A stretch of 64,000 nucleotides of DNA from Dehalococcoidia bacterium (GTDB lineage Bacteria; Chloroflexota; Dehalococcoidia; Lucifugimonadales; UBA3495), in assembly GCA_965203855.1 (NCBI GenBank), contig CBDBDN010000005.1:321804-385803 (forward strand), written 5' to 3'. The notes beneath the pieces were generated by a model. It was not told where the DNA came from, made no database searches, and was given only the letters and a program-made list of their open reading frames with translations. The position numbers were made by a program, and so were the translations under genes. Below are positions 2,819 through 57,907 of the stretch, in pieces; position 1 is the first letter of the stretch, and each line of letters begins with the position of its first letter.

Positions 2819-3616
2819 TTATGCGCCGCGCAACCGCCGCAGTTCGGCTTGCAGGCGGGCGACTTCCGCTTCCGCAGTTTGCCGCCGATTACGCTCGGCC
2901 TGCGTCGCGGCTTCGGCGGCCTGCGCTATGGCTTCGGCGGCCTGCGCTGCGGCTTCGGCGGCCAATCTCCCCCGCTGCTGCTCCAGCACATTGCCCAGGA
3001 ATTCACCGGTGGACGGGTTGCGGAACCACAAGCGGTCGTCGGTTGCCCATAAATCAAGCCCCAGCGTTGGGCTGTATCCCCAAACCGCGCCCGACGGGTC
3101 ATCATGCAGCTCAACCGGAATGTAAGCGCCATCCGCCAGATATTCGCCGGCCAGCAGTTGGCCGTACAACTCACCGCCGCTAGGGTCGTAGCGCCAGTAT
3201 TCGCCGATGCCGACCCGCGCATACAAATCCCGCTTGTAGCCCAAATCGTTCTGCCAAGTGCTTTTGGAGCCGATTTCCAGGGCGAAGGCCGGCGGCTGGC
3301 CGAAATCCCAGATGCGGTAGGCGTAGGGCCACCACAAGCGGTCGGCGTTCTCGCCAAACACTACATAGCAATCGGGGATGAACACGGCGTCGGGGTTGCC
3401 CTCCTCGTAATAGACGCCGGTGTTGCCGGAAACGAACACATCGGAGCGGTCGCCGAACCAGCTGCGGATGGCTTCCATAATGTCATTGCGGGGGCGTTCC
3501 TGCATTTCGGGATCCGGCAGCGGGGATAGGATTTCCGGGTAGGCGTCCAGCAGGTCATCGTCAATATGCGCTGGCAGGGGCGGGTAGCGGTAGTAGTAGC
3601 GGGATTTGACAACCAT
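2819..3616 (-). CDS. Uma2-family (DUF820) putative endonuclease with a C-terminal coiled-coil tail
   Basis: The Uma2 core reads VFVSGNTGVYYEEGNPDAVFIPDCYVVFG ... ALEIGSKST ... KRDLYARVGIGEYWRYDP. An Ala/Glu-rich tail ends in ARLQAELRRLRGA. Confidence 0.85.
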   Translation of the reverse strand: MVVKSRYYYRYPPLPAHIDDDLLDAYPEILSPLPDPEMQERPRNDIMEAIRSWFGDRSDVFVSGNTGVYYEEGNPDAVFIPDCYVVFGENADRLWWPYAYRIWDFGQPPAFALEIGSKSTWQNDLGYKRDLYARVGIGEYWRYDPSGGELYGQLLAGEYLADGAYIPVELHDDPSGAVWGYSPTLGLDLWATDDRLWFRNPSTGEFLGNVLEQQRGRLAAEAAAQAAEAIAQAAEAATQAERNRRQTAEAEVARLQAELRRLRGA

Positions 3617-3689
3617 AGCAGAGCCTCAATCATACATACGGCCAGCCGAGCTGGGGCCGAGAATTGGCCATTCGGTTGAGCAGTTCCAC

Positions 3690-4445
3690 TTATGCGCCGC
3701 GCAACCGCCGCAGTTCGGCTTGCAGGCGGGCGACTTCGGCTTCGGCAATCTGCCGCCGGCTGCGCTCGGACTGCGCGTCGGCTTCGGCAGTGATGCGGCC
3801 TTGCTGCTGTTCCAGGACATTGCCCAGGAATTCCCCGTTAGCCGGATTGCGGAACCGCAGCCGGTCTCCGGCGGCCCACAAGTCCAGCCCCAGCGTTGGG
3901 CTGTATCCCCAAACTGCGCCCGACGGGTCATCATGCATCTCAAACGCGATGTAAGCGCCATCGGCCAGATGTTCGCCGGCCAGCGGCTGGCCGTACAGCT
4001 CGCCGTCATTGGGGTCGTAACGCCAGTATTCGCCGATGCCGACCCGCGCATACAAATCCCGCTTGTAGCCCAAATCATTCTGCCAAGTGCTTTTGGAGCC
4101 GATTTCCAGGGCAAAGTCCGGCGGCTTGCCGAAATCCCAGATGCGGTAGGCGTAGGGCCACCACAAGCGGTCGGCGTTCTCGCCAAACACTACATAGCAA
4201 TCGGGGATGAACACGGCGTCGGGGTTGCCCTCCTCGTAATAGACGCCGGTGTTGCCGGAAACGAACACATCGGAGCGGTCGCCGAACCAGCTGCGAATGG
4301 CTTCCATAATGTCCTGTCGGGGGCGTTCCTGCATTTCGGGATCCGGCAGCGGGGATAGGATTTCCGGGTAGGCGTCCAGCAGGGTATCGTCCAGCGTAGC
4401 CGGCCATCCGGCAGGGTAGCGGCGGGTTCGCACTTTGGTAGTCAT
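3690..4445 (-). CDS. Uma2-family putative endonuclease, tandem paralogue
   Basis: Near-identical central core to 2819..3616 at both protein and DNA level, with the same C-terminal ARLQAELRRLRGA. Confidence 0.85.
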   Translation of the reverse strand: MTTKVRTRRYPAGWPATLDDTLLDAYPEILSPLPDPEMQERPRQDIMEAIRSWFGDRSDVFVSGNTGVYYEEGNPDAVFIPDCYVVFGENADRLWWPYAYRIWDFGKPPDFALEIGSKSTWQNDLGYKRDLYARVGIGEYWRYDPNDGELYGQPLAGEHLADGAYIAFEMHDDPSGAVWGYSPTLGLDLWAAGDRLRFRNPANGEFLGNVLEQQQGRITAEADAQSERSRRQIAEAEVARLQAELRRLRGA

Positions 4446-7618: not shown

Positions 7619-9448
7619 TTACTTGAGCTGCACCGTCCAGATGGCGGTTACATAAGGCACCAGGCTCCAAGGTTCGTAGGAGGCCACGTCGGCGCCCAGT
7701 CCCCAGGGTACATTGGTGTTGAAGCCGTCGCCCCAATACGCCTGGTCGTACAGGTAGGCGTACATTTCGTTGTACGACTGCTGCCGGGTGTCGGGGTTGA
7801 GGTCGGCGAGGCCCTCAATCACTACCGGGGTAGTGGTGCTGGCCCACGGCTCCTTTACGGGGTCGTCGATGGCGCGCCAGGCGATGGCCTTGTTGTTGTA
7901 CGCGCCTTGGGTGATGGAAGTGCCGTCGTAGCGGGCTTCGTTGGTGCGTACCAGGACGTCGCCGGGGTATTCGCGGTTGTTCCATGCCTGACGGGTGGCG
8001 GCGGCGGCGCCGACCACTACTTCAACATCCCAGCCGAGTTCGTCCCAGAAATCCTTGTAGAGCTGGGCCAGGTCGGGCAGTCCGGGCAGGTCGCCGGCTT
8101 CCCAGGTATAGACGGTGAAGGAGATCTGCTCGCCGTTGGCGTCGGTGCCGTCCAGTCCGGTTTCGCCGCCGTAGCCGATGGACTTCAGCAGTTCGGCCGA
8201 CTTGTCCAGGTCATAGGGACGCGGCTCCAGGTTCGGCCCCCAGCCCAGGGAGTTGGGGGTTACATGGGACCAGCTGTTGGCGTTGATGGCCTCGGGGGAG
8301 TAGAGGTCGTTGACGATGGACTGCTTGTCCAGGGCGTGTTCGGCGGCCTGGCGGGCTTCCTTGGGGTAGCACCACAGCGATTCGTTCCAGCAGTCCACAT
8401 AGACGACCCAGTTGTAGGAGGATTCGTTTTGCCAGGCGATGCTGGCGCCGTCAATGTTGTTGATGTCATCCACCATATTGATGTTGGCTTCAATCAACTG
8501 GGCGGTGCCGGAGCGGAGGGCGGCCTGTCGGGAGGCGGGTTCCGGCACCACATCCATCGTCAGGGTGTCAAATCCGACGCGGCGATCTTCGTCATAGCCG
8601 TTGCCGGGATGCCAGAAAAAGTCGTCAAACCGCTCAAAGGCGTACTTCTGCTCCAGGATGGAATCGGCCTTGTTGACGGTCATCGAGCCGATGCCGATGG
8701 GGTTGTCCTCGTAGCAGGCGAACCCGACGTTGTCGGCAACATCGGCGCAGGCGCGCATGGCGGATTCGGGGACAATCATCGGGTCGGCGCCCTGGGCGTT
8801 TTCGGACCAGTTGAAGGCGAAGTCCAAGCGCACGGTATTGAAAGTTACCGAGACCTGGTTGTCGGCCGGGCCTTTGTCCACGCTGTCCACGCGCTCGGCG
8901 AAAGCGACGTCGCGCGGTTCGTAGTAGCCGGCTTCCAGCAGTTCCTGGGCTTCCAGGCCCATGCGGCTGTCCAGATTAAAGAACACGTCGTCGCGGGTGA
9001 TGGTGTCGCCGTTGTGGGCCTGGATGGTGTTCTCTTTGATGTCAAAAGTCCAGACCAGGCCGTCATCGCTTACCGACCATTTTTCGGCGACGGCGGGGGT
9101 AAGTTCGCTGCCGCCCTTGCCGCCGACGAGGGCGACCTGGAACATCCGCTGGAACTTGAGATCTTCGCCCTCAGTGAGGAACGGGTCGTACTTGCCGTTG
9201 CCGATGTTGGTAATCAGGACGGTAACATCGCCGCCGGATGATTCGGACATCATTGCATCGGTAGGGGCCGGCATGGCGGTGGGGGCGGCGCTGGCGGGGG
9301 CCGATGTGGCGGCGGGGGCCGCGGCGGAGCCGGAGCTGGCCGGGGCGGGTTCATCGGACGCGCCGCTACAGGCGACTGCGGCGATGAGCCCGGCAGAAAG
9401 CCCGGCGGCCAGCAGCAGCCTCCAGTTCAGAAATCGTTGCAGTGGCAT
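7619..9448 (-). CDS. ABC transporter substrate-binding lipoprotein (family 5, OppA/DppA-like)
   Basis: Start at the ATG at 9448 (MPLQRFLNWRLLLAAGLSAGLIAAVACSG, lipobox-like). Ala/Pro/Ser linker followed by a long solute-binding domain. Confidence 0.88.
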   Translation of the reverse strand: MPLQRFLNWRLLLAAGLSAGLIAAVACSGASDEPAPASSGSAAAPAATSAPASAAPTAMPAPTDAMMSESSGGDVTVLITNIGNGKYDPFLTEGEDLKFQRMFQVALVGGKGGSELTPAVAEKWSVSDDGLVWTFDIKENTIQAHNGDTITRDDVFFNLDSRMGLEAQELLEAGYYEPRDVAFAERVDSVDKGPADNQVSVTFNTVRLDFAFNWSENAQGADPMIVPESAMRACADVADNVGFACYEDNPIGIGSMTVNKADSILEQKYAFERFDDFFWHPGNGYDEDRRVGFDTLTMDVVPEPASRQAALRSGTAQLIEANINMVDDINNIDGASIAWQNESSYNWVVYVDCWNESLWCYPKEARQAAEHALDKQSIVNDLYSPEAINANSWSHVTPNSLGWGPNLEPRPYDLDKSAELLKSIGYGGETGLDGTDANGEQISFTVYTWEAGDLPGLPDLAQLYKDFWDELGWDVEVVVGAAAATRQAWNNREYPGDVLVRTNEARYDGTSITQGAYNNKAIAWRAIDDPVKEPWASTTTPVVIEGLADLNPDTRQQSYNEMYAYLYDQAYWGDGFNTNVPWGLGADVASYEPWSLVPYVTAIWTVQLK

Positions 9449-9803
9449 TGTTCGGTTAGTCCTCCTACAAGTTCTATTGGCAGCGCGCGCGGCGTCAGTT
9501 TCTGCCAAGTCGGTTGGGAATGGGGCAGAATTAAACGCTGATAGCGCCATATTGTCAATAGCGGGTTGCGAAATCCGCGCGCCGGGTAGATGATATGCGG
9601 CGGCGGCTCAGGTATGATATGCGGACGGCAGCCGCCGCCGGAACGCCGTTTTGGGGATATGGTTTCTCAGGATGCCGTCTTTCGGGATGCCGAGACTCTG
9701 GGAATGCCATCTACTGGAATGTCGTCTTTTGGAATGCCGAAACTGGCGGAGAAATTCGCTCGCTGCGCTGTCGCTGGGCGGGCGTGAAACCGGAAAATAG
9801 CTG

Positions 9804-47052: not shown

Positions 47053-48375
47053 TTAAGCGGCGCTCCTGGCCGGCGCATCGTTCAACAGCCCGATGCGCCG
47101 AAAGTTGTCGTCAACATAACGGGTATAGTACCCGTAGTCAAAAAGTTCGTCCATCTCGTCAGCGGACAGCAGCGCGGCGGCATCGGCGTCGGCTTTGAGC
47201 AGGCTGCGGAAGTCATCGCCGTCATCCCAGGCGCGCATCGCATTGCGCTGCACAATATCGTAAGCCGCCTCCCGGGCCAGCCCCTTATCCTCAACCAGGG
47301 ACAGCAGAACTCGCTGGCTGAAAATCAGGCCGCGGCTGCTTTCCAGGTTTTGCCACATCCGCGCCGTGTCCACCCGCAGCCCGCTGACCACATAGGTAAA
47401 GATGCTCAAAATGTAGTCCAGCATCAGGCAGGAATCCGGCAGGATGATGCGTTCCGATGACGAATGACTGATGTCGCGCTCGCCCCACAGGGCCACATTT
47501 TCCAGCGCCGGCACGGCGTTGCCGCGAATGGTGCGCGCCAGCCCGCAGATGCGTTCCGTAAGTTCGGGATTGCGCTTGTGCGGCATTGACGACGACCCGG
47601 TTTGCCCGGCGCCGAAAGGTTCCTCAACTTCATGGATTTCGGTGCGCTGCATCCCCCGGATTTCGGTAGCGAACTTCTCCAAAGAGGCGGCAACCAGGGC
47701 CAGCGTAGTGATGAAATGGGCGTAGCGGTCGCGCTGCACTACCTGATTGGAAACCGGGGCGACGGCCAGGCCCAGATGCTGGCAAACCCGTTCCTCAATA
47801 TGCGGCGGAATTGTGGCGTGAGTGCCTACCGCCCCGGAGATTTTGCCTACCCGGACGGTTTCACGGGCCGCTTGTAATCTCTCCCGCTGCCGGCGCAGTT
47901 CGTCCCACCACAGCGCCAGTTTCAGCCCGAAAGTAATCGGCTCGGCGTGGACGCCGTGCGTCCGGCCCATCATTATAGTGTCCTTGTGGCAAACGGCCTG
48001 CTGCTCCACGGCGGCGATGGCGGCGTCCAGCTCCGCCAGCAGCAAGTCGGCGGCGGCGACCAGCTGCAACGCCTGCCCGGTGTCCAGCATATCCGAGGAA
48101 GTCATTCCGAGATGCAGCCAGCGGCCCTCTGCGCCCAGCGTTTCGGTGATGGAACGCAGAAAGGCGGTAACATCGTGGCGCGTGGTGGCGAAAATCTCCA
48201 GCATCCGCTGATGGTTGTAAGCGGCGGAGCGCAGAGCGGCCATATCGGCGGCGGGAATGACGCCGGCCTCCGTCCACGCTTCGCAGACGGCCAGCTCCAC
48301 ATCCAGCCACATCCGATATTTATTTTCGTCCGACCAGACCTGCTGCATCGCCGGCCGGGAATAGCGGTCAATCAC
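47053..48375 (-). CDS. purB: Adenylosuccinate lyase
   Basis: GTG start (V/MIDRYSRPAM). Matching segments are TSSDMLDT, GKISGAVGT and the signature SSSMPHKRNP. Confidence 0.95.
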   Translation of the reverse strand: MIDRYSRPAMQQVWSDENKYRMWLDVELAVCEAWTEAGVIPAADMAALRSAAYNHQRMLEIFATTRHDVTAFLRSITETLGAEGRWLHLGMTSSDMLDTGQALQLVAAADLLLAELDAAIAAVEQQAVCHKDTIMMGRTHGVHAEPITFGLKLALWWDELRRQRERLQAARETVRVGKISGAVGTHATIPPHIEERVCQHLGLAVAPVSNQVVQRDRYAHFITTLALVAASLEKFATEIRGMQRTEIHEVEEPFGAGQTGSSSMPHKRNPELTERICGLARTIRGNAVPALENVALWGERDISHSSSERIILPDSCLMLDYILSIFTYVVSGLRVDTARMWQNLESSRGLIFSQRVLLSLVEDKGLAREAAYDIVQRNAMRAWDDGDDFRSLLKADADAAALLSADEMDELFDYGYYTRYVDDNFRRIGLLNDAPARSAA

Positions 48376-48565: not shown

Positions 48566-49255
48566 ATGAACGGCGCCAACTTGCCCGCTACATATACCGC
48601 CGTTGCCCTGGCGGAAAAATGGGAACGCTGCAATCCCGATACCACCCGCACCAGCAACCTCGGCCTGCGTATGCGCCGCGCCATCAGCTGGCTGCAACGC
48701 GCCGAGCAGGAACCCGACGACCCGGACGCCGCATTCATTTTCTACTGGATCGCATTCAACGCCGTCTATGGCGAGGACCGTCCCGAGGATTATGACCGCA
48801 CCGGGCGAGAACGCGACACGTTCCAGCGGTATTTTGCGAAAGTGGTCGCTTTGGACACGGACAACTCAATCTACGCGGCCGTTTGGGAAAAATTCACGGA
48901 CTCGGTTCGGGGATTCTTGGAAAATCGGTTTGTCTTTGCTCCATTTTGGAAATCACGCAACCGCAACGCCCAAAACCCGGACTGGCAGCGTATGTTTGAC
49001 AACAGCCGGCGAAAAGAAACTTGGGCATTTGTAGATAAGGACGCCGTCGCTATCCTGGACGCCCTGTTCGACCGTCTCTATGTCCTCCGCAACCAGCTGC
49101 TGCACGGCGGCGCAACCTGGCAAGGCAGCGTCAACCGCAGCCAGGTGCAGGATGGCGCCGCCATCATGGCGTTCCTCGTCCCCCATTTCATCAACCTGAT
49201 GATAGACCATCCGCACATTGACTGGGGCAGCCCCCGCTACCCGGTAAGGCGCTGA
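48566..49255 (+). CDS. HEPN-like protein (Rx4H motif), family unassigned
   Basis: All-helical, 229 aa. The C-terminal LRNQLLHGG fits the HEPN R-x4-H catalytic motif. GGAGGG before the ATG. Confidence 0.45.
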   Translation: MNGANLPATYTAVALAEKWERCNPDTTRTSNLGLRMRRAISWLQRAEQEPDDPDAAFIFYWIAFNAVYGEDRPEDYDRTGRERDTFQRYFAKVVALDTDNSIYAAVWEKFTDSVRGFLENRFVFAPFWKSRNRNAQNPDWQRMFDNSRRKETWAFVDKDAVAILDALFDRLYVLRNQLLHGGATWQGSVNRSQVQDGAAIMAFLVPHFINLMIDHPHIDWGSPRYPVRR

Positions 49256-49290
49256 TCAGCCTGCTATCCGGCAAGACGCAGTAATCGCGG

Positions 49291-49800
49291 TTAGCGCCGG
49301 GTACGCCAGTCCGTCCGAAAATCCAGTTCGCGTATCAACCCAAAAATGTTGCTGTGGCGCACATTAAAATCATCGCATACGTCAGGCACTTTGCGGTTGG
49401 AGCCGCGCTTGCTGGGGCGGGAGGTTTCGTTGCTGATTACGCTTCGGCCGGCAGGGTCGGTCAGAGCATAAGCAATCAAAAAAGGATCTCGGCCGATTTT
49501 CTCAATATCAACATCGGTCAGGCCGTTGCCATAGCCTTGCTCAGTTACCAGAGCAACTAAATCCCGGCGAACTTCCTCGTCCAGCAGCAGCGCATCCCGG
49601 TTTGCCCGCAGCCAATCTACTACGGCATCCTGCCGTTCTGGCGGCGGATTTACTATTTCCTCGTAGATGTCCAGCGGAATCTTGACCAAGCCCCGCTCCC
49701 CTATTGCAGCGAGCCAGTCCCAAAACTCCGGCACCCGATCTATCGGGTAGTAATCGCGGTTAGCGTCGATCAGTACATTAGCATCCAGCAGGTAAAGCAT
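49291..49800 (-). CDS. DUF4411 (PIN-like nuclease fold) protein
   Basis: MLYLLDANVLIDA..YYP.D..PEFWDWL ... DPFLIAYAL ... KVPDVCDDF is the characteristic DUF4411 pattern. Confidence 0.8.
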   Translation of the reverse strand: MLYLLDANVLIDANRDYYPIDRVPEFWDWLAAIGERGLVKIPLDIYEEIVNPPPERQDAVVDWLRANRDALLLDEEVRRDLVALVTEQGYGNGLTDVDIEKIGRDPFLIAYALTDPAGRSVISNETSRPSKRGSNRKVPDVCDDFNVRHSNIFGLIRELDFRTDWRTRR

Positions 49801-49802
49801 AA

Positions 49803-50999
49803 CTACCTCTCGGACGGATGGCCAATGTTGAGGATCGGTTGCACCTGGCGGGATTTTACCCCTAGTATCCGGGCTGCTTTGGCGGTGGAAAGGGCATCGT
49901 CCGCCATCATTCGGCGCACCAGTTCGGTGATGCGACTGCCCAAACGATGGCGCCGGACGACATAATAATTCGGCCCGCTTTCCCGCTCTCTGGACTGAAT
50001 GCGCTGGCGTTCCTTTTCTTGTCGCCACTGCTGACGATATGTAGCGCAAAGACGATGATAAAATTCCTGGCTGATGCACCCCAGGCGATGCGCTTTGTAA
50101 GCCACCATTGCGCGGCTAACTTTGCATTCGCCAGCCAAATCGGCGATGCTTGCCGACAGATAATTGAAATCGCTGTCGCTGAAAACTGCCGCATCAAAAT
50201 CACTGGTCGGCAGCAAAAACTCGCCGGCCACGTCGTCGCAAAATCGTTCAATCACGCTGCTTCCTTGCGCGCTGCCTACGCCGGTCTGCCCCAGCAGCAA
50301 ATGCACCGTCTCATGCAGCAATGTGAATGACCATGCCGGGCGGGCGTCCTGGTCATTAATAACTATAAAGGGCGCTACCGTATCGGCGATAGAAAACCCG
50401 CGAAAAACATTCGTGTCCATTGCGGTATGATAGTTGCCCAAATCACCCTTAATCAGTACGAATATACCTGCTTTTTCCGCACTCATCCGCAGCAGATTAA
50501 AGGCAGCGGACGCATTGGGCTGCGCCCGGTATGTCGCCAAGTCAACTTCCAGCAGGTGTTGCAGCGATGCCAGGACAGCCGCTGGCCCATCCCCAATGGT
50601 GTGCGCGCCAATGAAATCCAGAGGCTCGGCTTCGTCTTCTTCATCCAGGACGGAGCGCACCATGCTTTGCCGTGCCCGCACATCCCGCACCAGCGCATCC
50701 AGCAAGGCTTCGTCCGCAGCTGAATGCTCTGCCGGCAAAGTGCGAAAATCTACTCCCCGATCCCCTTTCGCCGGCGGCTGCGACAAGTAGAAAGCGAGCA
50801 GCGGACGGCGGTACTGCTGCGACATTTTGACCAGCCGGCTGCGGCTTGGTTCCGCTGCGCCCGTTTCCAAAGCGGCGAGTTTGCTTACCGCTGAGGATCG
50901 CCCAGAGTCGCTGAGTCCCAATTTACGGGCTGCTTCCTCTGGCGTCAGACCGGCGGTTTCCCGCGCCCAAACTAGTATTTCCGGGTTAACCCTGGGCAT
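49803..50999 (-). CDS. XRE-HTH plus ImmA/IrrE-family zinc metallopeptidase
   Basis: N-terminal HTH (ARETAGLTPEEAARKLGLS) and peptidase HExxH (LLHETVHLL). Its stop lies 2 nt before the DUF4411 start. Confidence 0.85.
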   Translation of the reverse strand: MPRVNPEILVWARETAGLTPEEAARKLGLSDSGRSSAVSKLAALETGAAEPSRSRLVKMSQQYRRPLLAFYLSQPPAKGDRGVDFRTLPAEHSAADEALLDALVRDVRARQSMVRSVLDEEDEAEPLDFIGAHTIGDGPAAVLASLQHLLEVDLATYRAQPNASAAFNLLRMSAEKAGIFVLIKGDLGNYHTAMDTNVFRGFSIADTVAPFIVINDQDARPAWSFTLLHETVHLLLGQTGVGSAQGSSVIERFCDDVAGEFLLPTSDFDAAVFSDSDFNYLSASIADLAGECKVSRAMVAYKAHRLGCISQEFYHRLCATYRQQWRQEKERQRIQSRERESGPNYYVVRRHRLGSRITELVRRMMADDALSTAKAARILGVKSRQVQPILNIGHPSER

Positions 51000-51109
51000 T
51001 TCAGACACGCCATACTTGGTAGCGGATAGCGGCATTATAGGGAACGATGCCAAAATCTGCCAGGATTGCTTATCTACTCCGACCTGGCCGTATCGGCGAC
51101 GCGATACGG

Positions 51110-51823
51110 TCAACCACTAACATACTCCCGCACCGCCTCCAATACCCCCACAAAATCCGTAAATGGCCGCCAGGCGATCCCCGCCGCATCGCACAGCTCG
51201 GCCAATTGCCGGTGGGCCAGGACGGCATCGGCAATCTCCGCCGCCTCAAAATCGGAGCGGCCGTCGCCCATAAAGAATACATAATGCCCGGCATCTTGGA
51301 ACTGCCGCACGATGCGCGCCTTGCTGTTGCCCCGTTCCGGCGCATCCGGGTAGGGGAAATCGTAGCGATAGCCGGCGATGCGCCCGGCATCGTCAAAGTC
51401 GGTCGCTACGGCGTACACCGGAATAGCGGGGCCGCCGATGCCGTCCAGCAGGGCCTGGATGTAAAAGTCCAGGCCCTGGCTGACAATCACCAACGGAATA
51501 TCCCATTGTCGGCAGAAGTGCCAGAGTTCGGCGAAACCGGGGCGGAAATCGGCGTTGGCCCGCACGAAATCCTGCATCTCCCTTTTGGATGCCGTTATAT
51601 CCAGGAAAGTGATTTCCTGGTAATCCTTCAGCGACAGTTCGCCGTCGCGAAACCGCTGCCGCACTTCCTGCCAGTTGGGAGCTCCGAACCGATGCAGCAG
51701 CAGCTCGGCCACATTCTGCACGGCGGCGGTGTCGTCAAAGTCGGTAAGCACCGCCGGCGGCCGGACGGAACAAGCGTCGTTCCCGCCGGCCCGGTTCGGG
51801 TTGGCGTCAGTGTCAGCGTTCAC
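51110..51823 (-). CDS. HAD-superfamily phosphatase (MtnX/phosphoserine-phosphatase-like)
   Basis: DFDDT (DxDxT motif I), VSQG (motif II region) and MGDGRSD (motif IV). The start is uncertain: GTG at 51823 or at 51751. Confidence 0.6.
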   Translation of the reverse strand: MNADTDANPNRAGGNDACSVRPPAVLTDFDDTAAVQNVAELLLHRFGAPNWQEVRQRFRDGELSLKDYQEITFLDITASKREMQDFVRANADFRPGFAELWHFCRQWDIPLVIVSQGLDFYIQALLDGIGGPAIPVYAVATDFDDAGRIAGYRYDFPYPDAPERGNSKARIVRQFQDAGHYVFFMGDGRSDFEAAEIADAVLAHRQLAELCDAAGIAWRPFTDFVGVLEAVREYVSG

Positions 51824-52271
51824 GGAGGGACTGCCGGTACTGGTCCAGGGCGTCGCGGATCGCATCGTACTTCAGCGCCAGAATTGCGGCGGCGAAGTAG
51901 GCGGCGTTGCGCGCGCCCCAGCCGCCGACCGCCATCGCCGCTACCGGAATGCCCGGCGGCATCTGCGCGGTGGACAGCAGCGCATCCCAGCCGTTCAGCT
52001 CGCTGGAAGTCAGCGGAATGCCAATCACCGGCAGGGTGGTTTGGCCGGCCAAGGCGCCGGCCAGCGCCGCCGAGCCGCCGGCGGCGGCAATCAGCACTTC
52101 GATGCCCCGTTCCCGCGCGGCGGCGGCGTATTCGTGGACGCGTTCCGGCGTGCGGTGCGCCGACATTACCCGGACTTCGTAGTCAATGCCCAGGGATTCC
52201 AGAGTGTTGACGGTGGGTTGAACCGCATCCTCATCGGACGCGCTCCCCATAATTACTGCTACCAGGGGCAA
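51813..52271 (-). CDS. purE: N5-carboxyaminoimidazole ribonucleotide mutase
   Basis: Matching segments are VAVIMGSASD, VMSAHRTP, AAGGSAALAG and VIGIP. TTG start. Confidence 0.9.
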   Translation of the reverse strand: MPLVAVIMGSASDEDAVQPTVNTLESLGIDYEVRVMSAHRTPERVHEYAAAARERGIEVLIAAAGGSAALAGALAGQTTLPVIGIPLTSSELNGWDALLSTAQMPPGIPVAAMAVGGWGARNAAYFAAAILALKYDAIRDALDQYRQSLRER

Positions 52272-52363: not shown

Positions 52364-52819
52364 TTAGTCGTCGTCGTCATCGCTGTCGTCATCATCGTCA
52401 TCAATGTCGGCGATGTCGCGGAAGGCGTCCAGCAAGGCGTCCTGTATCTCCGCCGGCTCGTCCTCAATTTCCTCGTCCTGCACGATGATATAGCCGGAAT
52501 CGTCCTCGTCAATGCCGATGCGTACCGCCAGCTCGACGGGGCTGCCGTCATACCAGAACAGGATGTACACGATCTCCTCGTCCGATTCGTCATCGGCCAC
52601 ATCATCATCGTCAAAGTCATACTCCCAGGAACGCTTGACGATGATGCGGCCGGCGTCGTCCAGCAGCGTGGAGTTCATCTGCTCCAGCAGGCTGGCGATG
52701 TCCAGGTTCCCGGCGTAGTTTTCCAGCAGCCTGCGCCGTTCATTAAAGTCGGCCAACAGCGGGCTGTAATCGCGCGCCATGCTGGCGCGCAGCCGGTTCA
52801 GTTCATCCTGCCAAGCCAT
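52364..52819 (-). CDS. Hypothetical, extremely acidic 151-aa protein
   Basis: The C-terminal third is almost entirely D/E (DIADIDDDDDDSDDDDD). No family recognised. Confidence 0.5.
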   Translation of the reverse strand: MAWQDELNRLRASMARDYSPLLADFNERRRLLENYAGNLDIASLLEQMNSTLLDDAGRIIVKRSWEYDFDDDDVADDESDEEIVYILFWYDGSPVELAVRIGIDEDDSGYIIVQDEEIEDEPAEIQDALLDAFRDIADIDDDDDDSDDDDD

Positions 52820-52900: not shown

Positions 52901-53392
52901 CTATTCGTCGTCGCCGTGGTCCGGAGATTGATGCCATATTATAGCCACATTGAGCTGCCGGGCGGTTTCTGCGATTTCCTCCGGCCAATCGCCGTAGTGC
53001 GTAACCAGAAAAGCCTGCGTCCTGACTCCGGTAACTCGGTTGATGACGGCGGCGCGGCGGGCGGCGGTTTCCAGGTCGCCCCGGTTGAATGTAATGGAAC
53101 ATTCGCCAACCAGCAGCAAGTCGGCATGGTCGTCATCAGCGATGTCGCGGGCGATGATGTCGGCGTACAAGCCATCCAGGAATTCGTCGCGCGTAATCAG
53201 CCCGTCCCCACGCGCCTGCAAAAGCTGCACCTTGATGCGTTCCCGGTCGGCAAGTACCGCCAAAAGCGGACATTGGTCCAGAATTATGCCGATTTCATCA
53301 CGGCAGTAATCTGCGTAGTCAACGGCGTCCCAATATGCTATATCGCGGCTAATGCTCCGCTGTGTGCGGGTGATTTCGGAAATGGCAGTCAT
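52901..53392 (-). CDS. Hypothetical 163-aa protein, possible PD-(D/E)XK-like fold
   Basis: DADLLLVGECSITFNRGDLETAARRAAVINRVTG resembles the D...E-x-(K/S) core plus RA..RA helix of small nuclease-like proteins common in Chloroflexi and cyanobacteria. This is weak. Confidence 0.4.
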   Translation of the reverse strand: MTAISEITRTQRSISRDIAYWDAVDYADYCRDEIGIILDQCPLLAVLADRERIKVQLLQARGDGLITRDEFLDGLYADIIARDIADDDHADLLLVGECSITFNRGDLETAARRAAVINRVTGVRTQAFLVTHYGDWPEEIAETARQLNVAIIWHQSPDHGDDE

Positions 53393-56359: not shown

Positions 56360-56506
56360 AAAGCAAGCCTGCAATATCCTGAACTGAAAATCGGCAAAAT
56401 GCGCCGCCCATATTAGCACATCCGGCTCCGGCCCGGTAAGCGAAAAATCCAGCGTCTCACCCGTCGTTCCAGACCCCAACCGTCATTACAACACCCCCAA
56501 CCATAG

Positions 56507-56575
56507 ATTCCGGCTTTCGCCGGAATGACGGTGAATTGGGGAATGACGATAGAGAGGCCGGAATCACGATTGGAG
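56507..56575. repeat. REP-like palindrome copy with trailing GGAATGACG half-sites
   Basis: ATTCCGGCTTTCGCCGGAATGACGGTGAATTGGGGAATGACG...GGCCGGAATCACG. Confidence 0.65.
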
Positions 56576-56590
56576 GGCCGGCTGCGGGAT

Positions 56591-57171
56591 TTACTGGCAC
56601 CACATCATATTGGCCCAGCGGATGTACTGCCCGCCTCTGGCCGGAACGGCCGCTACCACCGCACTCAGGAGCCGGTAGCGGGTTGTGCCAACCTGTACAA
56701 AATCAGAGTTGGGAGTGGTGTCTCCGGGACTCCAGGGCGTATCAGCAAATCTGACAAATTGCCCGGTGTTGGGAGCAAGGTAATAATTGTTGGGGCTGGT
56801 TCTGTGAAAGACCCGGCCCATTGCGAGTACGTATGTGTGGGGCGTCGTAAGAGTGCTCCGTGCGTAACCTTGCTGCCTGGTAAGACTTAAATCAACCTCA
56901 TAGCGGGCGGGTATGGCATCTATGGCCGCGACATAACCGCTGCGTTCCAGCACAATCAGCCAGCCGCTGTCGCTGTTGCCGCAGTTATACGCCGCCTGTC
57001 CGTCGCGGACATTGTAGTAACGGGGCTGCTGCCCGTATTCCTGGCAAACCCGCTGCGTGTAAGTGTAGCCGCCTAGGCTGGTAGCTTTATCGGGGGGGGC
57101 AGAATTCCGATGGCGATGACGGCGGCGAAAATGCCGATGCCGGCCGCGGCTACTGCAATTTTACTCAACAT
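56591..57171 (-). pseudogene. Signal-anchored secreted or surface protein, frame broken at a C8/G8 run
   Basis: AGGAGGA plus the ATG at 57171 gives MLSKIAVAAAGIGIFAAVIAIGILPPP and stops 6 codons after the run (57092-57099). With 9 C the frame runs on into ORF 56591..56953. Confidence 0.6.
57092..57099. repeat. 8-nt poly-G (poly-C on the coding strand) tract
   Basis: Counted directly: tatc + 8 G + cagaatt. Confidence 0.95.
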
Positions 57172-57414
57172 GATGCTGTTTCCTCCTGGCGTCGGGATAA
57201 TTCCCATAGGTGCGCGGAGGCCGATTATATCATAAGACAGTCCGGGTGTCGCAGCGGTCTATACCTCGGCAAAATCCAAAATCCCGTTCATCCCCTTTAT
57301 TCATGCCATCACCCCCCCGCCCTCAAATCACCGGGCCGGCATCCGGTTGCTCTACCGCAATCACGGTGATAGCATAACCCGCGCGGCAGTACGATATATT
57401 TTTAGGAGATAACG

Positions 57415-57520
57415 ATGCCATCCAGCAACCACAATCTGTTTGACCTTACCGGGCGCGTCGCCCTGATTACCGGCGGCAACGGCGGCCTCGGCCTGGCCAT
57501 GGCCCTGGGGGTATCCCGCG
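57415..57520 (+). pseudogene. N-terminal fragment of a short-chain dehydrogenase/reductase
   Basis: AGGAG plus ATG, then [32 protein letters not shown] (TGxxxGxG Rossmann motif). Similarity ends where the inverted guaA-5' copy begins. Confidence 0.6.
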
Positions 57521-57532
57521 CCGTTGCCCATG

Positions 57533-57722
57533 TACACGCTCAACTCCCGCACCCGCCGGGCAATCAGATGCGTGTACTGCGATCCGAAATCAACGACTAC
57601 TATAGCGTCCGGTTGGGCGGCGTCGTACATAAAGCAAGCCTGCAATATCCTAAACTGGAAATCGGCAAAATGCGCCGCCCATATTAGCACATCCGGCTCC
57701 GGCCCGGTAAGCGAAAAATCCG
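57533..57722. repeat. 190-bp second copy of the guaA 5' end plus its upstream region (original at 56261-56450)
   Basis: The two are near-identical by direct comparison. The copy encodes [33 protein letters not shown] on the minus strand. Confidence 0.9.
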
Positions 57723-57907
57723 TCGGCGTTTCCGGCAGGTGGTACAGTCAAATTATGAATCACTACCGGCCGGCGTATGTTTTCGCTATTCCGACGCCCC
57801 TAATCGGAATGACGGTTGGGGGTATTGACACCGATGGACAGGATGGACGGGATTTTGGATTCCGGCTTGCGCCGGCGTTGGGTGTCCTGCTGCGCTGATG
57901 CCGTACA

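Follow-up and report, generated by a model that had tools for sequence, protein, structure and literature searches.

The three genes that occupy the gap between purB and purE in the window (the whole stretch of 64,000 nucleotides analysed here, from a Dehalococcoidia bacterium) are best explained, with a probability of roughly 65%, as two independent conflict-type modules stacked in a variable islet, neighbours rather than a three-gene system, their convergent juxtaposition reflecting accessory genes stacked at one permissive site with no shared mechanism. One module consists of an XRE-ImmA gene and a DUF4411 gene, which form a tight, mobile and conserved pair, while the other is a HEPN-like gene that resides at this site with or without the cassette carrying the pair. 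The purB/HAD–purE gap itself is a small strain-variable islet of the lineage. An earlier note on this DNA had proposed that the three genes may form one protease-controlled, dual-nuclease defence unit; this reading of the locus is corrected here, the pair being another RosmerTA-like cassette.

ORF calling confirms the three genes as real, at the coordinates given in that note (Table 1), together with the details it described, namely a HEPN-like product of 229 aa, a convergent gap of 35 nt and a gap of 2 nt between the stop of ImmA (TAG) and the ATG of DUF4411. The block is also placed as described, between purB and purE, with the refinement that a HAD-IB phosphatase intervenes on the purE side. 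The G+C content of the three genes is 0.55–0.59, versus 0.62–0.68 in the flanking pur genes.

Table 1. Features of the purB–purE gap and its flanks (positions within the window).
Feature	Position	Strand	Basis or remark
purB (adenylosuccinate lyase), conserved left flank	47053..48375	-	Lyase_1 and ADSL_C domain matches
HEPN-like gene, 229 aa, stand-alone	48566..49255	+	ORF and RBS; ATG start, GGAGG ~8 nt upstream
Variable mosaic central segment, codons 71-160	48776..49045	+	helical insert between HEPN core helices 2/3
RNQLLH (R175-N-Q-L-L-H180), putative catalytic Rx4H motif	49088..49105	+	residues 175-180; invariant residues
Spacer between convergent stop codons, 35 nt	49256..49290	.	without terminator-like structure
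20-nt direct repeat, left copy	49280..49299	.	cassette left edge; 19/20 identical to 49749-49768
DUF4411 PIN-like gene, 169 aa, predicted toxin nuclease	49291..49800	-	PF14367, E=3e-28
Swappable cassette, 1.82 kb (DUF4411, XRE-ImmA, promoter region)	49296..51118	-	blastn breakpoints
20-nt direct repeat, right copy	49749..49768	.	encodes conserved DANRDYY motif of DUF4411
XRE-HTH + M78 (ImmA/IrrE) metallopeptidase, 398 aa, predicted antitoxin/sensor, RmrA-like	49803..50999	-	PF06114, RmrA
HETVH zinc-binding motif of ImmA peptidase	50301..50315	-	residues 229-233; downstream Glu motif, ERFCDDVAGEFLLP
Sigma-70-like promoter candidate, CTGGCA-18-TATAAT	51034..51063	-	~35 nt upstream of ImmA start
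HAD-IB (MtnX-like) phosphatase, conserved right flank	51110..51865	-	domain matches, synteny
purE, conserved right flank	51813..52271	-	domain matches, synteny; HAD-IB + purE = 51110..52271

The composition of the pair is well defined by profile matches. DUF4411 reaches 99.1 bits against PF14367 (cut-off 23.5) over profile positions 1–158 of 159, matches phrog_11126 (E=5e-25) and retains D6, D12, D105 and E125, which are invariant among 44 homologues. Its partner matches Peptidase_M78 (PF06114, E=6e-11, 42.6 bits, cut-off 22), while HTH_3 falls just below its cut-off on the N-terminus (22.3 versus 23 bits); the full length of the protein is covered by phrog_2439, annotated as a transcriptional regulator (E=1e-44), and the RmrA HMMs of PADLOC match it with a best E of 5e-18. 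The two phrog matches are to families of phage proteins. DUF4411 has no PADLOC match at E<=0.1 and no RmrT model matches it and, thus, the pair is not automatically called Rosmer by PADLOC. In a reverse sample of 80 metagenome loci of DUF4411 (572 kb), an ImmA homologue is found in 77/80, and of the 62 loci where the arrangement could be tested, 55 have an ImmA gene that runs up to the start of DUF4411. DUF4411 downstream of an HTH-DUF955 fusion has been described as a predicted toxin–antitoxin system (PMC5499597), and ImmA-protease antitoxins with diverse toxins, PIN-like ones included, constitute RosmerTA (PMC10440598). The assignment of the pair to a toxin–antitoxin or abortive-infection type of module, made in the earlier note, is therefore upheld by the RmrA match, the 55/62 pairing and these two reports. 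To judge by sequence, it is a cassette of the RosmerTA or COG2856–PIN toxin–antitoxin type, for which neutralisation of toxicity and an anti-phage role are predicted.

The cassette resembles the anti-phage system RosmerTA (RmrT/RmrA; Millman et al. 2022, bioRxiv 10.1101/2022.05.11.491447; Ernits et al. 2023, PMC10440598) in being a two-gene operon whose antitoxin joins an XRE-HTH to an M78/ImmA zinc peptidase, and in having a swappable toxin partner, with PIN-like toxins among those reported. However, it differs in that the DUF4411 of the window lacks a PADLOC RmrT match, in that the antitoxin gene comes first, whereas the toxin gene is first in 58% of RosmerTA systems (PMC10440598), and in that an anti-phage role is here only predicted. 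The architecture is identical to that of the predicted 'three-component' toxin–antitoxin system formed by COG2856/DUF955-HTH and a PIN-like protein (DUF4411.1; Matelska et al. 2017, PMC5499597), from which nothing essential differs, the window copy being a further member from an uncultured lineage. Following the literature on this family, the N-terminal XRE HTH would autoregulate the ImmA–DUF4411 operon and the M78 peptidase protein would hold the PIN-like nuclease inactive. A trigger, e.g., phage infection or stress, could then inactivate or redirect the protease-antitoxin, and the freed DUF4411 nuclease would degrade RNA and stop growth, as in abortive infection or addiction.

Natural presence and absence alleles show that the cassette moves as a 1.8-kb unit. 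The HEPN-like gene is found in the purB–purE gap of 5/5 close relatives, and at the same site in L081, L083, L084 and L085, while the cassette is present in 3/5 of the relatives and other genes take its place in 2/5. The pair is carried by L081 and L085/L086; in L083 and L084 the HEPN-like gene is kept and a gene for a Pro-rich secreted protein replaces the pair, with an additional NYN-like gene in L084. Blastn homology between the window and L083 breaks at 49295 and restarts at 51119, the flanks being 94–96% identical. The resulting indel of 1,823 bp comprises exactly DUF4411, ImmA and their promoter region, and the HEPN-like gene belongs to the 94–96% identical backbone. The alleles of the HEPN-like gene fall into two types, A (window, L081, L084) and B (L083, L085), which do not track the presence of the cassette. 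The notion of three genes acting as one unit is not supported by this comparison, since the HEPN-like gene lies outside the discrete indel formed by the cassette and 2/5 close relatives lack the pair.

Co-occurrence of the HEPN-like family with DUF4411/ImmA pairs across genomes, which had been suggested as a check on the single unit, turns out to be very rare in both directions. The family is found in 0/80 of the metagenome loci of DUF4411, and in the forward test on species genomes DUF4411 is found in 1/80 and ImmA in 3/80 of the HEPN-like loci, so that about 77/80 are without any ImmA. A complete lack of linkage elsewhere, which the earlier note regarded as telling against its proposal, is nonetheless not what is seen. 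Arenicellales is the only other lineage among 80 other genomes with the HEPN-like gene beside ImmA(–DUF4411); in its locus L055, HEPN-like, ImmA and DUF4411 are co-directional and joined by TGATG and ATGA overlaps, which implies co-translation there, and the HETVH motif of the window aligns with the ImmA of this locus.

This locus speaks for a system in which ImmA neutralises or licenses both nucleases, as a protease-controlled toxin–antitoxin–toxin arrangement. Besides L055, the same site in L026 and L176 retains HEPN-like and ImmA after loss of DUF4411, and RosmerTA operons are often toxin first, as mentioned above. Moreover, the association arose twice, ImmA and DUF4411 being only 25% identical between the window lineage and Arenicellales. 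Such a system is nevertheless highly improbable here: L083 and L084 retain the HEPN-like gene although they lack the pair, the allele types of this gene vary independently of the cassette, the two-way census runs against linkage, and the HEPN-like gene and the pair are convergent in the window and, thus, not co-transcribed. L175, L177 and L178, the closest relatives of the L055 ImmA outside Arenicellales, have no HEPN-like gene, and a link with an ImmA subfamily of the L055 type was rejected for this reason. That two unrelated lineages both have an ImmA module right at the 3' side of the HEPN-like gene exceeds what uniform chance predicts, so some functional or integrative affinity may exist between the two. 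These two independent placements also raise the question of whether ImmA cross-regulates a neighbouring HEPN effector.

R175, Q177 and H180 of the 229-aa protein are invariant among 46 homologues (mean column identity 47%). The significance of Rx4H lies in the invariance of R175 and H180 across homologues and not in the occurrence of the motif, since R-x4-H on its own is present in 36% of shuffles of this protein and is not significant. The AF2 model (pLDDT 85.7) is all-alpha, with Rx4H at the C-terminal end of helix 160–180, followed by a loop (181–190) and helix 191–214, and with helices 73–156 inserted after helices 31–47 and 53–68. The published description of HEPN domains puts Rx4H where core helix 3, the penultimate one, comes to its end and allows for an insert separating helices 2 and 3 (PMC3710099), and the modelled topology appears to match this description, the mapping of helices being inferred rather than obtained by superposition. 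The window protein itself gives zero Pfam or NCBIfam matches. Counted over the 46 family members, with every match below the curated threshold, HEPN_RiboL-PSP of Pfam matches 8/46 (best E 0.0038, 17.6 bits versus a cut-off of 28.4), CARF_HEPN of PADLOC 12/46 and Csx1 6/46 (best E 9.6e-4), and the profiles that recur are HEPN models only. A natural relative, P0062, is a tandem fusion of two HEPN-like copies that both contain an Rx4H, which is what a dimeric HEPN site would lead one to expect. On the structural side the HEPN claim of the earlier note drew no support, as Foldseek, run with the AF2 model on PDB and BFVD, produced no match at E<0.6 and returned no HEPN structure, and a sequence-profile search of PDB found nothing. 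Nevertheless, the identification is probably borne out by an invariant Rx4H that ends core helix 3 and by recurrent matches to HEPN models only, and the topology, these weak matches and the tandem-fusion relative together make membership in the HEPN superfamily likely.

The central segment of this gene shows an unusual divergence. Between the window and L085 its dS is 0.79 and its dN 0.29, whereas dS is 0.04 in codons 1–70 and 0.03–0.10 in purB/purE. Positive selection was rejected, because dN/dS in the segment is 0.2–0.45 and dS is very high; as read from these alignments, the divergence is due to recombination and not to dN>dS. In mechanistic terms, a HEPN-like homodimer would bring two Rx4H motifs together into a metal-independent RNase site that the variable helical insert might gate or target, in the manner of the lactococcal HEPN Abi proteins, which are single-gene systems.

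The family is large (at least 3,589 protein clusters) and is not covered by any Pfam model, and it matches at least 579 species genomes in a patchy distribution, mostly in Chloroflexota, Acidobacteriota and Proteobacteria and often in stable chromosomal contexts. It also occurs on 24 plasmids, of which 15 are conjugative. A phage origin was rejected, since the family turns up on no more than 5 of the 2.9 million viral contigs and has no PHROG match. Among 80 other genomes the gene is usually solitary or located behind a WYL regulator; such a regulator immediately precedes it in at least 8 genome loci and in plasmid pOT1-5. Its immediate neighbours in 80 species genomes are diverse and mostly metabolic. 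Some loci adjoin HEC-02-like, RmrA, MkoA or R-M genes; an S49 peptidase is adjacent in 6 loci of Dehalococcoidia groups and SSF/YbjQ in 4–5 loci of Acidobacteriota groups. When the 158 immediate neighbours were clustered all-versus-all and scanned with Pfam and PADLOC, no general partner gene emerged, and this idea was rejected; the partners that did appear are lineage-limited (WYL, HEC-02-like and S49 peptidase).

Since housekeeping synteny is conserved in several Dehalococcoidia and Acidobacteriota groups, a stable cellular role fits this synteny as well as defence does. The HEPN-like protein might be a component of cellular RNA metabolism or a regulatory protein, possibly not a nuclease, next to which an ordinary addiction-type toxin–antitoxin cassette has been inserted. 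Such a role agrees with the S49 and SSF/YbjQ synteny, with the 50–60% identity across phyla and 41 invariant positions, with a solitary gene devoid of an antitoxin-sized partner, with its near-absence from viral contigs and with the Foldseek result. However, the patchy distribution, the mostly conjugative plasmids, the WYL regulators upstream, the defence-type neighbours at some loci, the recombinant central segment, the invariant Rx4H and the tandem-fusion relative point elsewhere, and the dN/dS of the gene, 0.2–0.4, exceeds that of purB among the relatives (0.05–0.09). This alternative is rather unlikely. Under the preferred reading of two independent conflict-type modules, the family, which is large, highly conserved and uncatalogued by PADLOC and Pfam, represents a probable solo HEPN protein that may reasonably be proposed as a single-gene RNase acting in abortive infection or stress.

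The HEPN-like protein resembles lactococcal AbiD, AbiF and AbiV in being solitary and all-alpha, in the conserved Rx4H that closes core helix 3 and in the insert that separates helices 2 and 3, and its family shows weak recurrent matches to HEPN_RiboL-PSP, which has been called distantly related to AbiD/AbiF (Anantharaman et al. 2013, PMC3710099). It differs from both groups in having no L-PSP fusion, no profile match at threshold and no known phage phenotype. HEPN-MNT toxin–antitoxin systems of types II/VII likewise include a putative HEPN RNase with Rx4H; however, HEPN-T toxins are only about half as large as this protein and neither the window nor the 80 sampled loci show an MNT gene beside it, and such a pairing was rejected because no NTP_transf_2 gene adjoins it in the window or among the 158 immediate neighbours. 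In at least 8 loci of Proteobacteria, and on plasmids, an HTH-WYL-WCX gene immediately precedes the HEPN-like one, a likeness to defence regulated by WYL proteins (BrxR/CapW-type HTH-WYL-WCX), whereas the window copy and most copies of Chloroflexota and Acidobacteriota have no WYL gene. A more speculative view, which seems very doubtful, is that the family constitutes a new and widespread effector that can be plugged into ImmA-type protease switches: in Arenicellales, and possibly here, one XRE-ImmA would control both a HEPN RNase and DUF4411, while elsewhere the effector would act solo or be run by WYL, with the mosaic insert as the sensor of the trigger. If true, this would be a toxin–antitoxin–toxin defence unit named in no catalogue so far. 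The weight of the present result is modest and current views of defence islands are not overturned.

Some minor features accompany the edges of the cassette. The promoter candidate is the single match in the region, a count not above that of shuffles. The spacer between the stop codons was rejected as the site of a terminator or of a structured RNA (fold z-score -0.02, no terminator call there); cassette-less relatives have instead a GC hairpin just past the position of the spacer. The 20-nt direct repeat was rejected as a general feature of DUF4411 cassettes, being missing from 77 other loci. Within the lineage, its two copies are 20/20 identical in L085/L086, and a diverged left copy is kept in the cassette-less L083 and L084.

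Three genes separate purB from the HAD-IB phosphatase gene and purE, and both the ORF listing and direct translation bore out the arrangement described in the earlier note, with the stops of the convergent HEPN-like and DUF4411 genes 35 nt apart and 2 nt between the ImmA stop and the DUF4411 ATG. The G+C content of the three genes (0.55-0.59) is lower than that of the pur genes (0.62-0.68). A GGAGG sequence lies ~8 nt 5' of the HEPN-like ATG, and a candidate promoter (CTGGCA-18-TATAAT) is located ~35 nt 5' of the ImmA start. The N-terminus of the XRE-ImmA protein gives an HTH_3 match slightly below the Pfam threshold and its HETVH motif occupies residues 229-233, the RNQLLH motif of the HEPN-like protein corresponding to residues 175-180. 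Neither a terminator nor an unusual structure was found in the 35-nt convergent spacer and, thus, antisense read-through into DUF4411 is possible; relatives devoid of the cassette carry a GC hairpin at this position.

Features of the purB-purE locus and its surroundings in the window
Feature	Position	Strand	Description
purB			left flank
HEPN-like ORF	48566-49255	+	229 aa
Allele-specific HEPN-like segment	48776-49045	+	codons 71-160
20-nt direct repeat, copy 1	49280-49299		covers DUF4411 stop codon and cassette left edge
DUF4411 ORF	49291-49800	-	169 aa; PF14367, E 3e-28 (Pfam)
Swappable segment	49296-51118		DUF4411, ImmA and promoter region
20-nt direct repeat, copy 2	49749-49768		encodes conserved DUF4411 motif DANRDYY
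XRE-ImmA ORF	49803-50999	-	398 aa; Peptidase_M78 PF06114, E 6e-11 (Pfam)
HAD-IB phosphatase			right flank; overlaps purE
Small gene between purE and purD	52364-52819		acidic 151-aa protein, poly-Asp tail at its end
Small gene between purE and purD	52901-53392		163-aa protein; weak PDDEXK_10 match (E 0.005)
Counterpart of the HEPN_Swt1 site	~56480-57900		

The DUF4411 and peptidase genes form a tight, mobile and conserved operon with intact catalytic motifs. Among 80 metagenome loci with DUF4411 homologues (49-62% identical), 77 contain an ImmA homologue; where the sequence extends far enough upstream (62 loci), a co-oriented ImmA gene terminates where DUF4411 begins in 55. In the window, the invariant acidic residues of DUF4411 (D6, D12, D105 and E125) and the peptidase HExxH/E motif are preserved, and both proteins match phage families, namely phrog_11126 (DUF4411, 5e-25) and phrog_2439 (peptidase, across its full length, 1e-44). 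Moreover, the peptidase protein matches 13 PADLOC RmrA models (best 5e-18) and, weakly and far below the model cut-off, the NCBIfam spr1629 antitoxin model. Since DUF4411 has no match among the PADLOC RmrT models, the pair is termed 'RosmerTA-like' rather than given an automatic Rosmer call. DUF4411.1 downstream of a fused HTH-DUF955 (COG2856, ImmA) is a predicted toxin-antitoxin arrangement (Matelska et al. 2017, PMC5499597), and RosmerTA combines an ImmA-protease antitoxin with diverse toxins, PIN-like ones included (Millman et al. 2022; Ernits et al. 2023, PMC10440598). The RmrA matches, the recurrent pairing and this literature support the toxin-antitoxin or abortive-infection reading of the pair in the earlier note and place it within an already-known RosmerTA-like or COG2856-PIN toxin-antitoxin kind. 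Judging from what is known of these families, the XRE HTH would autoregulate the operon and the M78 peptidase protein would restrain the PIN-like nuclease until a trigger frees it, leading to RNA degradation and growth arrest.

Although this part of the earlier reading stood, the proposal that the three genes constitute one protease-controlled, dual-nuclease defence unit is not supported in this lineage. Across other genomes the three families almost never occur together: in the 10-kb flanks of the HEPN-like gene from 80 species genomes, DUF4411 was found in one (family HMM) and ImmA in three (phmmer), and the HEPN-like family was found in none of 80 DUF4411 loci (572 kb). The HEPN-like gene is autonomous. 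Pfam scans of its 158 immediate neighbours in these genomes revealed no general partner, the upstream ones including WYL/WCX regulators (5), SSF transporters (5) and AAA_21/15 (3), and the downstream ones S49 peptidases (6), YbjQ (4) and M78 (2). PADLOC defence matches among the neighbours were lineage-limited: three related Dehalococcoidia showed HEC-02-like ATPase pairs, and other matches were to RmrA, MkoA and a type I MTase. In these Dehalococcoidia (L022, L039, L048), the region ~150-1650 nt upstream harbours, on the opposite strand, an AAA-ATPase gene resembling HEC-02A/HEC-02B (E as low as 1.8e-120) and, after it, an ORF of 161-168 aa; the two genes diverge from the HEPN-like gene. An HTH-WYL-WCX gene immediately precedes the HEPN-like gene in the same orientation in eight or more genome loci, as well as in two contigs of the viral collection and on plasmid pOT1-5. 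This BrxR/CapW-like regulator, located ~30-100 nt upstream in L034, L046, L062, L069, L070, L075, L079 and L080 and also present in L172 (3002-3976), accompanies the HEPN-like gene in Proteobacteria, plasmids included, where expression would probably be controlled by a WYL-type ligand-sensing repressor. Of the 24 plasmids that carry the family, 15 are conjugative, and among 2.9 million viral contigs only 5 have it; a TM0106 RecB-like nuclease is encoded nearby on plasmids pOT1-5 and pRSMS1.

Five close relatives, with HEPN-like proteins 80-92% identical to that of the window and flanking DNA of ~82-96% identity, separate the gene from the cassette directly. Between purB and HAD-purE, L081 and L085/L086 carry the HEPN-like, DUF4411 and ImmA genes, L083 the HEPN-like gene and a 289-aa Pro-rich secreted-type protein, and L084 a NYN-like gene, the HEPN-like gene and 181-aa and 125-aa proteins, part of this content being homologous to the L083 insert. 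Blastn homology between the window and L083 breaks off after 49295 and picks up again at 51119, an interval that holds exactly the pair with its promoter region. The HEPN-like gene thus belongs to the backbone and not to the cassette, as the indel leaves it out and L083 and L084 keep it without the pair. When the window is compared with L081, the pair (dS 0.35-0.47) has diverged to an extent comparable with the flanks (0.18-0.29) and, therefore, both gap alleles appear old and exchanged by recombination. According to codons 71-160, the HEPN-like alleles fall into type A (window, L081, L084) and type B (L083, L085), irrespective of cassette presence. Between the window and L085, these codons show a dS of 0.79 and a dN of 0.29, whereas dS is 0.04 over codons 1-70 and 0.03-0.10 for the neighbouring purB/purE; this suggests that the insert between the HEPN core helices was swapped by recombination. 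As for the cargo of cassette-less gaps, the L083 protein (8831-9700) is Pro/Thr-rich and homologous to the 125-aa ORF of L084, whose own cargo spans 1766-2392 and 3302-4250; its weak NYN-domain gene (PIN-like superfamily) lies between purB and the HEPN-like gene.

Linkage elsewhere, whose absence would by the terms of the earlier note have refuted its proposal, was found in one other lineage, the Arenicellales. In L055 (9986-12287), the HEPN-like, ImmA and DUF4411 genes follow one another in the same orientation, overlapping at TGATG and ATGA, and the same site in L026 (9932-12039) and L176 (3207-5293) contains the HEPN-like and ImmA genes without DUF4411. The L055 ImmA and DUF4411 proteins are only 25% identical to those of the window, so the juxtaposition arose independently in the two lineages. 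No HEPN-like gene was found near the closest non-Arenicellales homologues of the L055 ImmA, which are an orphan in a defence island (L175, 70% identical), an orphan next to IS605 (L177, 55%) and a member of an MNT-ImmA-DUF4411-ResIII array (L178, 49%). Two independent ImmA modules directly 3' of a HEPN-like gene exceed uniform chance; both placements are compatible with accessory genes gathering at permissive sites, and functional coupling keeps a small probability. The three-gene reading survives, with low probability, on the single Arenicellales operon. In L178 (3608-8590), NTP_transf_2 lies directly upstream of ImmA-DUF4411, followed by a 941-aa ResIII helicase; minimal nucleotidyltransferases of this type are the usual partners of HEPN proteins. 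A 1019-aa helicase-like gene follows the pair in L055.

The HEPN-like family is large, uncatalogued and probably HEPN, and merits testing on its own. It comprises at least 3,589 homologous clusters (E<=1e-3), of which a few are named 'HEPN domain-containing protein' by NCBI and not one has a precomputed Pfam domain; genomes of at least 579 species encode it. When 46 members are aligned, 41 positions are invariant, including R175, Q177 and H180 within LYVLRNQLxHGGATW; the mere occurrence of Rx4H carries little weight, as 36% of shuffles of the protein have one. The AlphaFold2 model on this alignment is confident and all-alpha (pLDDT 85.7, pTM 0.86), with N-terminal helices 31-47 and 53-68, a large helical insert (73-156), a helix (160-180) closed by Rx4H and, after a loop, a last long helix (191-214), a layout that fits the HEPN helix arrangement described by Anantharaman et al. 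(PMC3710099). HEPN models are the only profile families recurring among the 46 members, all sub-threshold, namely Pfam HEPN_RiboL-PSP in 8 (residues ~133-192, profile positions 103-173 of 191), PADLOC CARF_HEPN in 12 and Csx1 in 6. AbiD/AbiF are described as distant relatives of the RiboL-PSP-HEPN family (PMC3710099), and the protein would resemble single-gene HEPN Abi proteins. Foldseek searches with the model matched neither solved (PDB) nor viral (BFVD) structures (best E 0.66 and 0.63), and a PDB sequence-profile search was empty. The invariant motif and the HEPN-only profiles favour the HEPN assignment of the earlier note, the structural searches weigh against it, and the probability that the 229-aa protein is a member of the superfamily is roughly 0.7. 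One homologue, P0062 (387 aa), naturally joins two HEPN-like units in tandem, both of which carry an RNQLIH motif; this fits the dimeric composite active site of HEPN RNases and hints that the family functions as a dimer. By analogy, the protein would most likely be a homodimeric, metal-independent RNase, which its variable insert may gate.

Further variation surrounds these genes. The 20-nt repeat is 19/20 identical between its copies in the window and 20/20 in L085/L086, with a diverged copy kept in the cassette-less L083 and L084; it was not found in 77 other DUF4411 loci and may represent microhomology serving cassette exchange. Just after guaA, close relatives carry a 444-aa HEPN_Swt1 (PF18731) gene (L081 from 16088 and L085 from 15884 to the locus end; L083 14931-16265) that tblastn matched nowhere in the window, so this purine-gene region varies at a second site too. 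The two small genes between purE and purD have similar or matching-size counterparts in three of four relatives, namely L081 (the second being 211 aa), L083 and L085.
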